DNA of 6,407 nucleotides. Origin: a virus (taxonomy: Duplodnaviria > Heunggongvirae > Uroviricota > Caudoviricetes). The translations under genes and the position numbers were made by a program. Each line of letters begins with the position of its first letter. Position 1 is the first letter of the stretch. The stretch is taken from IMG/VR virus record IMGVR_UViG_2579778982_000018, one strand, 5' to 3'. Shown piece by piece: positions 479-6,407 of this stretch. The notes below the pieces were generated by a model, which was not told where the DNA came from, searched no databases, and saw only the letters and a program-made list of their open reading frames with translations.

Positions 479-3400
479 TCAGCTGATACTGATGCCTGCG
501 GTGGCTTTCTTCATCACCACAACCAGCAAATCGCTGATACTTGCTGTGGGATACCAGTTATTCACCAGCCATGCTGACACCGAAAACTCCAGCGTCATGT
601 GACCGTGACCGGCAGGCATATCAATAACGCCACTGTAAATCAGCGTATTATCCAGCGCGGTACGGTTATAAATTTCAGCACCGTTTTTCCGCACTATCAG
701 ACGGCATGAGGAGTAAATATCAGTATGCTCTCTCTCATGCTTAGCGCCACTGAATGCCACCGCCGGAATAACAATCTGCCGGTCAAACGGCTGATCGTCA
801 TAAACCCTGACGGTAATGGTCCCTGATGGCCACCGCTCCGGTGCACGGGAGTCCCGGGGGAAAGCTTTGCCCACTGTTTTAACGAGATCGCCTTCAATCT
901 GGTTCGCGGACAGTTTTCCCAGAACCCGACAGTTCTCGTTAATCGTGACGTTGTTGAGCGTCCCGGAGTTCGCATTCACACTACCACTGATATCCGCATT
1001 TTTAGCCGTCAGCCGCCCGTCCGATGTCAGGGAAAATGCCGGAGGATTACCGCCACTGGTAATGGTGGGAGCCGTCAGATATTTCAGGAACACTTCATTC
1101 ATGAATATCTGATCGCCCTGACCAACAAACATCGGCTTTGTGTTGCCATTCGCAGGATTAATCATCGCAATCCGGTCAGCAGCCAGAAGCACCTGACTCT
1201 GCATACCTGCTGGCGTATTCTCAATACCGGCACCGATACCCGCAATATAAAGGCGTCCGTCCTGCATCTGCTGCAGCTTCACAGCCCACATGCTGTTCAG
1301 ATTATTATTTGTATCAACCTGAACCTTCTGTATCTGCTGGATCGCCGCACTCTGGTCTTCCAGTTTCTTATTGACGGTCTGCGTGATTTCATTGCTGACA
1401 TTCGTAATGGACGTCCTGATTTCAGCCAGGTCCGGCGCAAGCTGACCGTTATCAATCTGCGTCCACAGCTCCTGGGCCAGATGTGTTTTCCCGATTTCTC
1501 CTTTGAAAAAATCCAGGTAACCTTCCGCATCATCGCTCGCCCGACCGACAGCCTCCACGAATGCCGATTTGCCAACGGTGTTCACACTGCGAACGTAAAA
1601 ATAATAATCATGGCCCGGTTTGATATTGATACTGGCGGCTATCCAGTACAGCGCCGTACCAAGATAACGCGCGCTGGTTTCAACCTGCCTGATATCAGCA
1701 ATCCGTTTTTCCGAGAACCAGAACTCAAACTGTACCGTCGGATCATAAACCGCAAAATGCGGCGTGGCGGTTATCTGAAAATAGCCCGGCGTCAGCTCAA
1801 TCCGCGACGGTGCTGCCGGTGCGGCAATCCGGAACGATACCGACGCCGGATCGCCCTGCTGTCCCCACGCATTTACCGCCCGGACTGTCAGCCTGTAGTT
1901 CCCCAGCGCCAGTTGCGTGAAGCGGTATGTGGTTTCCGTCGTCCGGGCCGTGCTGACCAGCCGCTCACTGCCGTCATCCGCTGCCACGGTCAGGCGAAGC
2001 ATGAAGCTCACGCCCTTCACCACCTTCGGCGTGTCCCAGCGCGCCAGCACCTGATATTCCCCGCTGTCTGCGGTGACTTCGGCAGTCAGGTGCTGCACTG
2101 CTGGCGGCGTGACACCATTCACCGTGCCGCTCTGGTCGCCGTCAAAGTGCGCCCCGTTATCCACGATGGCTTCTTTTTCCGGTACATGCTGCACGGCGGT
2201 GATGGCATACGTGCCGTCGTCGTTCTCACGGATACTCACGCAGCGGAACAGGCGCTGGCGCAGCGTCGGCAACTTCAGCCCCCACACGCTGTATTCAGCA
2301 ACGCCGTCAGGAACACGGCTCACTTTCACCTTCACGCCGTCGGTGACGGACTGAACCTCCACGCTGACCGGATTGCCACTTCCGTCAACCAGGCTTATCA
2401 GCGTGGTGCCGGAGGATGGCAGCGTGATTTCACGGTCGAGCGTCAGCGTCCGGGTCTGGCTGTTCACCGCCAGCACGCGCCCGCCGGTGCTGATACCGGC
2501 ATAGTCATCATCACAGATTTCAATGACATCGCCCGGCACATGGCGAAGCCCTTCTGCACCCACGCTGAAGTCCACGGTCTGCGTTTCCAGCAGTTCCGTT
2601 TTAATCAGCCACAGCCCGGCGCGGTGTGCCTGCCCCCGGCTGGTACAGCCAAAGGCATCCATCTTCGTGACGTGACGACCGTAACGGGCAATGGCCTGCG
2701 TATCCTCCACAAGCTCTGTCGCCGTCTCCCAGCCGTTGTTCGGGTCAATCCAGTTCACCTCAACGGCATTATGGCGGTCCTTCAGGGCGCTGAAGCTGTA
2801 GCGGAACGGCGCACCATCATCCGGCATCACCACATTACTGCGGTTATAGGTCCACACCTTATCTGATGGTCGGTCCTGCACGAACGTCAGCGTCTGCCCG
2901 TTCCATACCGGCATACAGCGCATCGCCGAGCAGAAATCACTGAGCACATCCCACGCCTTGCGCTGTGTGGTCAGGTACGCATTACAGGTAATGCGCGGCT
3001 CCGTGCCGCCAAAGCCATCCGGCACTGACTGGTCGCAGTACTGGCCGATGACATACAGCGCCCATTTGTCCACATCCGCCGCACCAAGACGTTTCCCCAT
3101 GCCGTAGCGTGGATGGGTCAGCATATCCCACAGACACCAGGCCATGTTGTTGCTGTATGCCGGTTTAAACGTTCCGTCCCAGATACCGCTGTATTGCCGC
3201 GTCTGCGGGTTATAATTCGACGGCACCTGCAGAATACGCCCGCGCAGATGATAATTACGGCTCACCTGCTGGCTGCCGAACTGCTCCGAATCCACCTGCA
3301 CGCCGACCAGTGCCGTGTTCGGGTAGCACTGTTTCACATCGATGATTTCGGTGTATGACGACCAGAGCGTTTTGTTCTGCAGCTGGTCTGTGGTGCTGTC

Positions 3401-3958
3401 CGGCGTCATCCTGCGCATCCGGATATTAAACGGGCGCGGCGGCAGGTTATCCACCACCACCGAGGCCAGATACTGCGAGGTGGTTTTGCCCTTAATGGTG
3501 ATGTCTTTTTCCGTCACCCAGCCACCATTACGCTGTATCTGAACCAGCAGGCGGACTTCCGACGGATTCCGGTCCCCCTTTGAGGTGGTTTCCACCAGTG
3601 CCTGCACACCGAAGGTAAAGCGCAGACGGTCGATGTTTGCCGACGTGATGGTCCGGGTGATCGGCGTGTCATATTTCACTTCCGTACCCAGCACCGTCTC
3701 GGAGCCGGAGGATTCAAATCCCTCCGGCGGTGTCTGCTCCTGCTCACCTGCCCGGAACACCACCGTGACACCGGATATATTGGTATTCCCCTCACTGTCC
3801 AGCACCGGCGTACTGTTCAGCAGCACGCTTTTTAATCCGTCCACCGGACCTTCAACCGGCCCTTCGCTGATGGCATCGATCACACTCAGCAGCTGCGTGG
3901 ACTTCAGGTTGTCCCTCGCTTCGCGCGGGGTATGCCCCTTACTGCTTCCTTTACCCAT
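479..3958 (-). CDS. J: Tail tip / host specificity protein J (central tail fibre), 1159 aa, with a variant C-terminal receptor-binding region
   Basis: 1159-aa ORF in the track; ATG at 3958..3956 with a GAGG-containing Shine-Dalgarno about 5 nt upstream. The N-terminus [34 protein letters not shown] and most of the first ~870 residues match lambda gpJ (1132 aa) as I recall it. The C-terminal ~290 residues are homologous but clearly diverged and longer. Confidence 0.95.
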
Positions 3959-3970
3959 TCCTCACACTCC

Positions 3971-4000
3971 ATAAACAACAAAGCCGCCCAAAAGGCGGCT
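3971..4000 (-). terminator. Terminator-like hairpin downstream of the inserted lipoprotein gene, immediately upstream of the J ribosome-binding site
   Basis: Inverted repeat AGCCGCC (3982..3988) / GGCGGCT (3994..4000) with a 5-nt loop; on the minus strand it is followed by the U-rich stretch TTGTTGTTTAT. Located between the lipoprotein stop (TAA, 4027..4025) and the J start (3958). Confidence 0.4.
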
Positions 4001-4024
4001 CATGAGTTACGACAGGATTAACTA

Positions 4025-4363
4025 TTATTTACATGCATTAACACTATCAGCAAAAATTTTTGGCGTTAATGCTGGTACACGTTCATAAAGAGTAAAACTA
4101 CTGCCATTTCCTGCTTTTTTGATATCAAGCACAACATCATATCCCCCCATAGCCTGTGGAACTAAAAGGCTTACCCCATTCTCAATAGGAAGGGATGTTA
4201 TAGGTGTTCCATTACCAGCCCATTGTCTGGATATGCAGCCTGACAATTCATCAATATTTTTTAATGAATTACCTTCCATTACAGGTTTTCCGGATTTTAC
4301 GTAATCCAAAGATTTACATCCTGTTAAGGCAATAATCGTGCAGAATAAAATCGTTTTGTTCAT
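4025..4363 (-). CDS. Small predicted lipoprotein (~112 aa precursor, ~93 aa mature) of unknown function; moron inserted between tail genes I and J
   Basis: ORF 4025..4375 in the track; the track's first codon is TTG, and I prefer the in-frame ATG at 4363..4361. From that ATG the product starts MNKTILFCTIIALTGC: positively charged n-region, hydrophobic h-region and a lipobox LTG|C, the signature of a signal peptidase II lipoprotein. The gene lies in a locally AT-rich segment unlike the flanking phage genes. No strong Shine-Dalgarno was found. I do not recognise the mature sequence. Confidence 0.75.
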   Translation of the reverse strand: MNKTILFCTIIALTGCKSLDYVKSGKPVMEGNSLKNIDELSGCISRQWAGNGTPITSLPIENGVSLLVPQAMGGYDVVLDIKKAGNGSSFTLYERVPALTPKIFADSVNACK

Positions 4364-4375
4364 ATAGCTAACCAA

Positions 4376-4436
4376 TAGAATAATTATCAGTGTTCGATAT
4401 AAATATTAAATCAGTTAGAACATGAGTAAAATAATA
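4376..4436 (-). promoter_or_regulatory. AT-rich spacer upstream of the lipoprotein gene; possible moron promoter
   Basis: 61-bp spacer between the I stop and the lipoprotein ATG, roughly 20-30% G+C, containing several -10-like hexamers on the minus strand (GATAAT, TAATAT, TATTAT). I could not pair any of them with a convincing -35 at 16-18 bp spacing, so this is a weak call. Confidence 0.2.
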
Positions 4437-5078
4437 TTACCGCCCAATTACCACAACCTGACCACCATCCCCTTCATCTGCCGTGCTGATCTCCTGAGAT
4501 GCCACACGTGACCCCACGCGCATTTCACCGTACAGAACAGGCAGGACATTGCCCTGGGCAACCATGTTATCCAGTGAGGAGAAATAGGTGTTCTGTTTGC
4601 CGTTATCCGTTGTCTGTGTACGGGGAGTTCTGGCTTTCGGTGCCAGCATCTGCGCCACACCACCAAGCGTCATCGCCGCACCCATTGAAAAGAGAATGTC
4701 ACTGAAAGCGATACTGATCCCCGGCATCCAGATTGCCGTAGCAATCAACGCCGCACCCAGCACCGCCTGAAACACACCGCCACTTTTTGCTCCCGCAAGA
4801 CGCGGCACGATGTGGATCACGGCACCATTTGCCAGCGGCTCATTAAGACGGGATGATAATTCGGTTTCTCCTGCATCCCGCCCGGCAATCCGTACCTGAT
4901 ACCAGCCATCGCTCAGTTTCTGACGAAACGCCGGGAGCTGTGTGGCCAGTGCCCGGATGGCTTCAGCCCCCGTTTTCACACGAAGGTCGATGCGGCGGCC
5001 AAATCGTTGCAAATCCCCGTAAAGGCAGATGCGTGCCATGCCCGGTGACGCCAGAGGGAGTGTGTGCGTCGCTGCCAT
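4437..5078 (-). CDS. I: Tail assembly protein I, 213 aa
   Basis: ATG at 5078..5076 with GAGAGG Shine-Dalgarno upstream; stop TAA at 4439..4437. N-terminus MAATHTLPLASPGMARICLYGDLQRFGRRIDLRVKTGAEAIRALATQLPAFRQKLSDGWYQVRIAGRD and C-terminus APKARTPRTQTTDNGKQNTYFSSLDNMVAQGNVLPVLYGEMRVGSRV..SQEISTADEGDGGQVVVIGR match lambda gpI as I recall it. The central hydrophobic segment differs, and the protein is 213 aa against 223 aa in lambda. Confidence 0.9.
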   Translation of the reverse strand: MAATHTLPLASPGMARICLYGDLQRFGRRIDLRVKTGAEAIRALATQLPAFRQKLSDGWYQVRIAGRDAGETELSSRLNEPLANGAVIHIVPRLAGAKSGGVFQAVLGAALIATAIWMPGISIAFSDILFSMGAAMTLGGVAQMLAPKARTPRTQTTDNGKQNTYFSSLDNMVAQGNVLPVLYGEMRVGSRVASQEISTADEGDGGQVVVIGR

Positions 5079-5719
5079 TTGTCGGTATACCTCTCTCGTT
5101 TGCTCAGTTGTTCAGGAATATGGTGCAGCAGCTCGCCATCACCACAGTAAATAGCGGCATGATTCGGCACCGATGAACCAAAGCAGCACAGCAGCACATC
5201 GCCCGGCTGCGCCGCTGACAACGGCACCTGATACAGCCCCGTTGCCTCCAGATTATCCAGATAGAGATTCTGACCGTGACGCCACCAGTCATCCTCACGA
5301 TGAAAATCCGGCATCTCAATCCCCGCCAGATGGTAAGCGTCCCGGAACAGCGTGTAACAGTCCGTCACCCCGTGCTCAAAGCGCCGCCCGGTAAGATGCG
5401 GCACACAGCGGAACTTGTGAATCGCCCCCCGGCAGACCAGCCACCACGGCAAATCACTCTGCACCTGCAGCCGCCGGTCAGCCTCACTCAGCCAGGGCAG
5501 ACCACCGGGATGACTGTGGACCAGCGCCACAATCTCACCCTGCATTTCTGCCTGCAGCCAGTCCTCCGGAGCCATCCGGAAATAATCCTCCGGCTCACCG
5601 GAAATATTCACGCAGGGAAAATATCTTTCCCCCTCCGGCGTTCTCACCACGAAGCCGCACGACTCCGCTGGCGCACATCGCCGGGCGTGCGCCAGAATCG
5701 CTGATTCTGTCTCTGTCAT
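4976..5719 (-). CDS. K: Tail tip assembly protein K with an MPN/JAMM (Mov34) domain and an NlpC/P60-like (C40 peptidase) domain; 247 aa if started at ATG 5719 (classical lambda annotation would be 199 aa from ATG 5575)
   Basis: Track ORF 4976..5794 begins with GTG inside the end of L; I prefer the in-frame ATG at 5719..5717 (MTETESAIL...), 4 nt after the L stop. It contains a complete JAMM motif HSHPGGLPWLSEAD (H-x-H-x7-S-x2-D) with acidic residues available upstream only in the longer form. It also contains NlpC/P60-like Cys and His contexts (GVTDCYTLF, NHAAIYCGDG). The alternative ATG at 5575 has a GGAGGA Shine-Dalgarno and corresponds to the 199-aa lambda K. Confidence 0.85.
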   Translation of the reverse strand: MTETESAILAHARRCAPAESCGFVVRTPEGERYFPCVNISGEPEDYFRMAPEDWLQAEMQGEIVALVHSHPGGLPWLSEADRRLQVQSDLPWWLVCRGAIHKFRCVPHLTGRRFEHGVTDCYTLFRDAYHLAGIEMPDFHREDDWWRHGQNLYLDNLEATGLYQVPLSAAQPGDVLLCCFGSSVPNHAAIYCGDGELLHHIPEQLSKRERYTDKWQRRTHSLWRHRAWHASAFTGICNDLAAASTFV

Positions 5720-5723
5720 GGGA

Positions 5724-6407
5724 TTACTGCGAAAGTTTGTTAATGGAAAGGAAGCCGCCAAAGTTGCCGACGTTATTGCGGAACTTACAGCCACTCAGGC
5801 ATTTGCTGCATTTATCCTTCGTGATATCGGACGTCGGCTGGTCATATTCATCCGCGACAGCCGGACCGCTATAACCGCACTCGTCACCGCGATAGGTCCA
5901 GGTGCAGGTGTTGGCCAGCATGATACGTCCCGGAAAAACAGCGCCATCCGTTTCCGTCGGCGTGGACAGTACAAAGGAGGCACTCACCGCGCTCAGTTCG
6001 CTGCACTGCTCGATGCGCCAGCGGCTGATCACCTCCTGCTCCGGATCGGCGTAACTGTTTCCGTTGACGAAGTTCACCGCATCCAGAAAACGGGCGTAAA
6101 CCTTACGCCGGACCACCGTTCCGCCGACCAGACTCTGCAGATCTTCCGCCATCCCGGTGACCATACCGTACAGGTTAGAAACCGTCAGCGTGGGGCGCGT
6201 ACTGGTGCCTTTGCCATTCAGTTCAAAACCGCTCCCCTGAATGGGATACGGCTGATACTGTCGCCCCTGCCAGGTGACCGGCTCACCTTTTTCGTTCTGC
6301 TCATTACAGAAAAAATAACGTTCTCCACCGACCTCTGTCAGGTCGATTTCCCAGAGCACCACGCTGGCCGACTGCTCCGCACGGGTGCATTCATTCAGTG
6401 TTTCCTG
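5724..6407 (-). CDS. L: Tail tip protein L, 5' end truncated by window edge (about 5 N-terminal codons missing)
   Basis: Frame is open from the window edge (6407) to stop TAA at 5726..5724. Product ...QETLNECTRAEQSASVVLWEIDLTEVGGERYFFCNEQNEKGEPVTWQGRQYQPYPIQGSGFELNGKG... matches lambda gpL as I recall it, including the C-terminal Cys-rich segment DKCSKCLSGCKF. Confidence 0.9.
   Translation of the reverse strand, partial: QETLNECTRAEQSASVVLWEIDLTEVGGERYFFCNEQNEKGEPVTWQGRQYQPYPIQGSGFELNGKGTSTRPTLTVSNLYGMVTGMAEDLQSLVGGTVVRRKVYARFLDAVNFVNGNSYADPEQEVISRWRIEQCSELSAVSASFVLSTPTETDGAVFPGRIMLANTCTWTYRGDECGYSGPAVADEYDQPTSDITKDKCSKCLSGCKFRNNVGNFGGFLSINKLSQ

Follow-up and report, generated by a model that had tools for sequence, protein, structure and literature searches.

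The open reading frame (ORF) of 112 codons that lies between the tail genes I and J of a lambda-like Escherichia coli prophage encodes a predicted outer-membrane lipoprotein and forms, together with the hairpin that follows it, an accessory cassette of lambda-like tail modules that is functional and moves horizontally. It was analysed in the IMG/VR record IMGVR_UViG_2579778982_000018, of which the whole stretch of 6,407 nucleotides is called the window here. The product belongs to PHROG 914, an unnamed but widespread family that is distinct in sequence and fold from the characterised phage lipoproteins. Its alleles do not follow the receptor-binding domain (RBD) types of the neighbouring J protein, as these are set apart by sequence. 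Tentatively, we read it as an outer-membrane lipoprotein facing the periplasm that would act as an exclusion or conversion factor at the level of the envelope and would not be specific for the receptor of J.

The inserted gene and its lipoprotein signal

The preliminary description of this DNA, which was made from the letters alone, had placed a lipoprotein gene at this point and stated that in lambda only a short non-coding spacer separates I from J. Both statements hold. Position and sequence of the ORF were given correctly, to which we add the minus strand, an ATG at 4363 and a stop codon at 4025-4027, and the I-J gap of lambda measures 60 bp (15445-15504) with no gene inside. The alignment with lambda shows about 430 bp of extra DNA at the junction (about 4002-4436), which together with the lambda coordinates confirms that the gene is additional relative to lambda. 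The GC content of this insert is 34-40% in comparison to 57-60% in its flanks, and a GC content lower than that of the flanks was found in 10 of 10 phage-borne copies examined. Thus the insert shows two marks of a moron, extra DNA between genes that are adjacent in relatives and a base composition unlike the surroundings (GC 0.36 against 0.57-0.58). Lambdoid prophages vary at the I-J junction; in VT1-Sakai it carries an unrelated filler of 240 bp (locus L011, 3110-3349) with a hairpin of its own and only a 39-aa ORF.

The product begins with MNKTILFCTIIALTGC, and the same 339-bp coding sequence (CDS) is annotated identically in RefSeq as 'hypothetical protein' WP_001332187.1. It agrees with the PROSITE-type lipoprotein rule, for which the pattern [LVI][ASTVI][GAS]C within the first 15-35 residues was used: K3 lies in the n-region and is followed by an uncharged h-region and LFCTIIALTG in front of C16, so that the textbook lipoprotein signal with an LTG-C lipobox that had been claimed from the sequence is indeed present. 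At +2 after C16 there is a Lys and no Asp, which predicts that the product is sorted to the outer membrane by the Lol system. Besides the lipid-bearing C16 the mature part contains two further Cys, as had also been noted before, namely C43 (codon 4235-4237) and C111 (codon 4031-4033); a fourth, C8, lies in the signal peptide. C43 and C111 probably form a disulfide, and a periplasmic disulfide would fit because the Cys pair is conserved, as it is in Llp.

A widespread family without a named relative

The window protein matches the hidden Markov model of PHROG 914 over its full length (E = 7.3e-33), with residues 1-112 aligned to positions 1-118 of a profile of 118. This family, labelled 'unknown function', was its sole library match. 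Scans of the window protein against Pfam (E ≤ 1), NCBIfam and PADLOC gave nothing but a sub-threshold VirB7 signal-peptide match, sequence searches of the PDB with two profiles returned signal-peptide or chance matches only, and a Pfam scan of 98 family members yielded four isolated matches, all with E above 0.005. The profile search of 1.84 billion representative proteins delivered 121 clusters at 50% identity, nearly all of them 105-125 aa long, which are named in the databases 'hypothetical protein' or 'lipoprotein' only.

Although the members diverge down to about 20-30% identity, lipobox and Cys pair are kept. C16, C43 and C111 are the only invariant columns in the alignment of 98 sequences. 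A lipobox is present in 117 of the 126 full-length members; none of these 117 has Asp at +2, and in 112 of them the number of Cys in the mature protein is exactly three.

Cor, Llp and Bor are the classic small phage lipoproteins that remodel the host envelope. Bor is expressed from the prophage, and the protein studied here resembles Bor/Iss in its lipoprotein nature, in its length of about 100 aa and in being the product of a lambdoid accessory gene. However, hhalign matches lambda Bor in the signal peptide only (27 columns, probability 61%), no Pfam Lambda_Bor match was obtained, and bor sits by the lysis genes whereas the gene described here sits in the tail module. Llp of T5 and Cor of phi80, N15, T1 and HK022, the latter marked by its block of FhuA-dependent phages and colicin M, are likewise small phage lipoproteins encoded among or next to tail and receptor-binding genes. 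Predicted outer-membrane sorting, a short tether and one invariant Cys pair likewise recall Llp and Cor, and Llp is a small periplasm-facing outer-membrane lipoprotein with one disulfide (PMC9586334). In sequence, the family profile aligns with T5 Llp (PDB 8A60, chain B) over residues 1-19 only (E = 0.46), and hhalign of the 98-sequence profile with Cor from phage Fraca covers 29 columns, that is the signal peptide and the first few mature residues. The earlier view that the protein is not Bor and belongs to no named family is therefore upheld, and in the comparison with Cor and Llp the likeness ends at the signal peptide region as well.

Predicted structure of the mature protein

The AlphaFold2 model, calculated from an alignment of 11 sequences, reached a mean predicted local distance difference test score (pLDDT) of 84 and a predicted template modelling score (pTM) of 0.75. 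The mature domain is modelled as beta-alpha-beta4-alpha, with residues 21-112 mostly above pLDDT 85 and values of about 90 from residue 21 onward, and residues 1-15 have low pLDDT, as expected of a signal peptide. Since the model is confident within a few residues of the lipid-bearing Cys, there would be essentially no tether between membrane and domain. The model places C43 within the first long helix and C111 within the C-terminal one, and a disulfide between the two is plausible.

In a Foldseek search against the PDB, Flpp3 ranked first, but weakly (E = 6e-3, TM score 0.52). To the Francisella Flpp3/DUF3568 structures (PDB 6PNY, 2MU4, 9NLT) the identity is 6-11%, so only the fold is alike, and none of the 98 family members gave a Pfam DUF3568 match at E ≤ 0.01. 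The Flpp3-like fold is also found in DUF302, KA1 and BamC-N domains, so the likeness is generic. The fold search of BFVD retrieved uncharacterised proteins only, and the best of them, from Pseudomonas phage phiAH14a, is itself a member of PHROG 914. As modelled, the fold is that of a generic small alpha+beta lipoprotein domain, and it assigns no function.

The lipoprotein alleles are not paired with the receptor-binding end of J

The preliminary description had proposed that the lipoprotein possibly masks the receptor used by a J protein with a diverged receptor-recognition end. The divergence is real: J shares 98% identity with lambda J over residues 1-820 and only 42% over the final 140 aa (482-901) (BLASTP, segment identities). 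J is a mosaic that past residue ~820 carries one of at least three C-terminal modules, called RBD1, RBD2 and RBD3, none of which is that of lambda. The modules, which were located at window positions 479-1495, at about 9950-10895 of locus L020 and in the IMG/VR loci L034, L058, L062, L072 and L081, are mutually 40-60% identical, RBD3 being about 58% identical to RBD1, and they are distinguished by sequence identity alone and not by the receptor used.

The proposed masking of this receptor was not supported. ETEC4069 has a 99.1%-identical lipoprotein in front of a J that shares only 40% identity with the J of the window over the last 140 aa. This pair of lipoprotein and J occurs in full length in 28 complete genomes, ETEC4069 counted, and in a variant form in about 20 more. 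The 41 resolved IMG/VR loci with the lipoprotein comprise 30 with RBD1, 6 with RBD2 and 5 with RBD3; the commonest lipoprotein allele occurs with all three (16, 2 and 3 copies, respectively), and so does the L58I allele. Conversely, 3,996 E. coli genomes contain the RBD DNA of the window (RBD1), at 9,873 places in all versus 349 places with the lipoprotein, which is about 28-fold more, and the RBD type of the window and a second type are also found without the lipoprotein (VT1-Sakai, E2348/69). The J proteins that accompany homologues in other phages have lengths between about 1,070 and more than 3,100 aa, and phage Fraca has an annotated cor gene downstream of J in addition to its lipoprotein homologue.

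Llp and Cor co-vary with their receptor-binding genes (PMC9586334; PMC11990801). If the lipoprotein masked the receptor of the adjacent J, the same co-variation with the RBD of J would be expected, but it is not observed, and the combination of linkage to and co-variation with a cognate receptor-binding protein that characterises Llp-type factors was not found. The lipoprotein is therefore not paired with the RBD of the neighbouring J, so that masking of the phage's own receptor, as originally stated, is unlikely, with the RBD types being defined by sequence and not by receptor.

Genomic slots of the family

The arrangement I-LP-J of the window (LP, lipoprotein gene) is an exception, since in most relatives the gene follows K directly. 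The order K-LP-I-J was found in Klebsiella, Hafnia, a locus of a GC-rich host, Serratia phage OS31 and several IMG/VR contigs. Phages Fraca and LMessi have one more gene in between (K-x-LP-I), and Yersinia likewise, there with an ant/arc block inserted after K. The small ORFs between K and the lipoprotein gene (89-115 aa; Fraca L002 7725-7994, LMessi L003 7647-7994, Yersinia L022 5655-5939) have no signal peptide, and a Pfam scan of those of Fraca and LMessi gave no match. In the Pseudomonas phages phiAH14a and P0021 the gene lies directly upstream of an I-like gene, and in HK97-like Enterobacter prophages (L008 8001-8342) the order is G/T-LP-H. A profile search of genome contigs contributed a single locus.

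In total, 11 of the 13 contexts examined are inside a tail module of the lambda type or next to an I-like gene. The remaining two are a homologue that has prophage integrase genes as neighbours and lies downstream of a holin gene (L026), and one on the non-phage chromosome of Shimwellia blattae (L014 7001-7339). The latter is 38% identical, lies between a YidB-like gene and ecotin near copCD/yebY, and has a GC content higher than its flanks; it is possibly a cellular ancestor or a domesticated copy.

Prevalence, selection and intactness

With the 481-bp segment 3960-4440 of the window as query, the insert was found at ≥95% identity in 337 of 5,426 complete E. coli genomes (349 places), i.e., in about 6%. 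The carriers include UTI89, NU14, CE10, APEC strains, O55:H7 CB9615 and the outbreak lineage O104:H4, as well as commensal, animal and environmental isolates. The carrier prophage of FDAARGOS_1059 has several IS66-family insertions in structural genes.

The ratio of nonsynonymous to synonymous substitution rates (dN/dS) is 0.06-0.11 within E. coli. Between genera it is about 0.2-0.5, where dS is saturated, and against the orthologues of Klebsiella, Kluyvera and Enterobacter (~52% identity) about 0.2. The ORF is intact in 56 of 60 E. coli-type IMG/VR loci. It is a real gene under purifying selection, which is occasionally lost by decay. Damaged copies (L086 3279-3613, L087 6001-6335, L088 about 6104-6313) show a frameshift after residue ~73 or an N-terminal truncation.

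Hairpin and expression signals

A GC-rich hairpin with a T-rich tail, which looks like an intrinsic terminator, follows the gene; it lies 23 nt past the lipoprotein stop codon and 23 nt ahead of the J start, the hairpin being at 3981-4001. Behind every phage-borne copy of the gene, within 20-40 nt, comes a GC-rich hairpin with a T-run, after which the next tail gene begins with its Shine-Dalgarno sequence and ATG.

At first the 3981-4001 hairpin was taken for the terminator of the moron itself. This was revised, since a homologous hairpin (AAACCGCCTGCGGGCGGTTTT) resides in the I-J spacer of lambda (L017 about 2462-2490), where there is no lipoprotein gene. The core of this lambda hairpin, CCGCCTGCGGGCGG, is identical to the hairpin behind a distant homologue in a GC-rich phage with the order K-LP-I (L027 about 6360-6385). 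Because it is common to the lambda spacer, the hairpin was not necessarily brought by the cassette; either the cassette landed beside a resident hairpin, or lambda could keep the footprint of a cassette that was lost. Following the definition of a moron (PMC3594210), a terminator-like hairpin within a late operon that is antiterminated by Q would point to locally initiated transcripts. Upstream of the gene, a second promoter scan gave only sigma-70-like matches of 8-9 out of 12 positions in AT-rich DNA, for example TTAATA-15-GATAAT at 4409-4383.

Two plus-strand ORFs within the insert (4119-4304 and 4204-4335) are unsupported and were treated as chance antisense ORFs in AT-rich DNA, and an Rfam scan of the window gave no RNA family.

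Neighbouring genes

The window represents the tail-tip end of the prophage, with all tail genes on the minus strand in the order L, K, I, the 112-codon ORF and J (Table 1). K and I overlap by 103 nt (4976-5078) in different frames, as they do in lambda. In the phages with the order K-LP-I, K and I do not overlap.

Table 1. Coordinates of the features in the window.
Feature	Position	Strand	Basis and remarks
L	about 5724-6362	-	tail gene; context
K	4976-5719	-	C40/NlpC-P60 + JAB tail assembly protein; ORF list and RefSeq annotation of the identical region
I	4437-5078	-	tail assembly protein; PF06805, E = 4.4e-24; RefSeq start shorter
AT-rich insert (leader, CDS, short trailer)	4002-4436	-	alignment with lambda and VT1-Sakai
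Lipoprotein precursor CDS	4025-4363	-	112 aa + stop; PHROG 914; RefSeq WP_001332187.1
Signal peptide, residues 1-15 (MNKTILFCTIIALTG)	4319-4363	-	predicted; PROSITE-type lipobox rule, low pLDDT
Lipobox L13-T14-G15-C16	4316-4327	-	predicted; PROSITE-type rule
Mature lipoprotein, 97 aa, about 10.3 kDa	4028-4318	-	predicted; lipid-bearing C16 onward
GC-rich hairpin (GAGCCGCC-TTTT-GGGCGGCTT) + T-rich tail	3971-4001	-	terminator scan
J	479-3958	-	tail-tip/central-fibre gene, 1159 aa; all gpJ Pfam domains, Ig_GpJ_C at residues 1029-1159
Diverged C-terminal third of J	about 479-1495	-	comparison with lambda J

Discussion

The small envelope proteins of siphovirus tail regions that serve as precedents, Cor, Llp and HK97 gp15, all act in superinfection exclusion, and for this reason exclusion or conversion is favoured for the lipoprotein as well. 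The precursor would be cleaved by signal peptidase II and lipidated at C16, and the Lol system would sort it to the outer membrane. There a compact domain of 97 aa, probably stabilised by a C43-C111 disulfide, would be held almost directly against the inner leaflet. From this predicted position its reach would be limited to outer-membrane proteins or to things that cross the outer membrane. By binding a partner in the outer membrane or one that faces the periplasm, the lipoprotein may alter the envelope of the lysogen or the infected cell, and the most plausible outcome would be the exclusion of incoming phages or colicins. The target would then be a fixed outer-membrane protein or a post-adsorption step common to lambda-like tails and not the receptor of the adjacent J. 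The general idea of an exclusion or conversion factor at the outer membrane, with which the preliminary description started, is plausible by analogy, and an envelope-level factor that is not specific for the J receptor is the version towards which we lean, though tentatively.

A parallel in genome organisation is HK97 gp15, also a small envelope protein, whose gene sits in an AT-shifted insert within a lambdoid tail operon. In Enterobacter, the lipoprotein homologue occupies the gp15 slot, which has the G/T chaperone genes on one side and the tape measure gene on the other. Gp15, the first moron, causes superinfection exclusion at the step of DNA entry and leaves the receptor unblocked (PMC3594210). 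However, it is an inner-membrane YebO-like protein and not a lipoprotein (PMC3594210), and it has no sequence relationship to the protein described here. Spackle of T4 is a periplasmic exclusion protein whose target is the lysozyme of the conserved tail-tip protein gp5 and not a receptor (PMC7677548); it is not a lipoprotein either, and there is no evidence of homology. The lipoprotein may thus follow the logic of Cor and Llp, or be independent of receptor alleles like HK97 gp15 and T4 Spackle, but it is a member of none of these families. The Tai tail-assembly-interference systems were considered as well and rejected, as they are situated upstream of the module for packaging and are not lipoproteins.

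A related possibility is that the lipoprotein, anchored under the outer membrane, neutralises a conserved tail component delivered to the periplasm, with the C40/NlpC-P60 peptidase of the K type, the hydrophobic I C-terminus and the tape-measure conduit as candidates. Such a protein would represent a new class of exclusion factors with linkage to the tail module and would be an analogue of T4 Spackle acting on gp5 or of the immunity member in an effector-immunity pair. A factor of this sort would account for the association of the gene with K and I and not with the RBD of J, and for one allele serving phages with differing receptors; we consider it improbable. A Spackle-like logic would fit the independence from the J RBD and the linkage to K (C40 peptidase) and I, but that the lipoprotein inhibits any tail-tip protein is pure conjecture. 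Quite improbable, in turn, is a factor of the Cor/Llp type that inactivates the receptor of the adjacent J and so provides self-exclusion and protects the progeny from cell debris. In its favour, the protein is a small predicted outer-membrane lipoprotein that, like Llp and Cor, has a single conserved Cys pair. Its gene lies directly upstream of J in this E. coli lineage, and in siphoviruses the genes of known exclusion factors adjoin those of the J-like hub and of receptor binding (PMC11990801). Against this stand the identical allele in front of RBD1, RBD2 and RBD3, types that are defined by sequence and not by receptor, the at least 28 complete genomes that pair the lipoprotein with RBD2, and the excess of RBD1 over the lipoprotein together with two RBD types that also occur alone. 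Moreover, in the family the gene is usually apart from J, the length of J varies widely, Fraca has cor besides, and the mature domain has no homology to Cor or Llp.

A role in host fitness or virulence without any exclusion, as a moron like Bor/Iss or Flpp3 that confers serum resistance, envelope stress tolerance or an advantage in host interaction, is possible, though unlikely. Here the likeness to Bor ends at the signal peptide and neither DUF3568 nor another Pfam family was matched, the link to tail genes in 11 of 13 contexts across Enterobacterales and Pseudomonas is unexpected for a host-niche factor, and carriers are found among commensal, animal and environmental isolates. That the gene is expressed late, in one transcript with the tail genes, and helps the lytic cycle of the phage, for example by conditioning the envelope for lysis or release, appears rather unlikely. 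The orientation is always that of the tail operon, the position beside I is conserved, no convincing promoter lies upstream and the gaps after K are very short. On the other hand, one would not expect a conserved terminator-like hairpin behind a plain member of an operon. The gene is also dispensable, being absent from lambda and from thousands of E. coli prophages whose K, I and J are near-identical, and the shifting slots, the atypical GC content and the homologue beside integrase genes downstream of a holin gene speak against such a helper. A decaying or non-expressed remnant without current function might be suspected from the weak Shine-Dalgarno sequence, the 4 of 60 IMG/VR copies that are frameshifted or truncated and the carriers riddled with insertion sequences; given the strong purifying selection, the 56 intact copies, the invariant lipobox and Cys pair and the confidently predicted fold, it is extremely improbable.

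Several observations weigh against the reading as an exclusion or conversion factor. The terminator/promoter scan detected, at its thresholds, no minus-strand promoter upstream of the lipoprotein gene. In the phages with the order K-LP-I, no more than about 30-40 bp lie in front of the gene, and the Shine-Dalgarno sequence of the E. coli copy is weak. Because of the weak promoter matches and the short gaps, the gene is perhaps transcribed only with the late tail genes. A megablast of the insert against 50,697 deposited phage genomes did not find the E. coli allele, and since it is missing there many carriers may be cryptic prophages; at any rate, the carrier prophages may be rarely induced or cryptic. 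The chromosomal homologue of Shimwellia blattae is compatible with a housekeeping role in the envelope, and a literature search gave no mention of WP_001332187.1 or PHROG 914.

An accessory phage gene for a small outer-membrane lipoprotein is of a well-known kind. To our knowledge, few families of small phage lipoproteins have been characterised, and PHROG 914 is a distinct one, with relatives in phages of Klebsiella, Enterobacter, Yersinia, Serratia, Hafnia and Pseudomonas and a presence in about 6% of the complete E. coli genomes. Should the lipoprotein prove to be a host-fitness factor, pathogenic E. coli would have in it a new gene of lysogenic conversion. Should it exclude phages whatever their receptor alleles, this would constitute a new class of mechanism and would be relevant for the prediction of host ranges in phage therapy against Enterobacterales.

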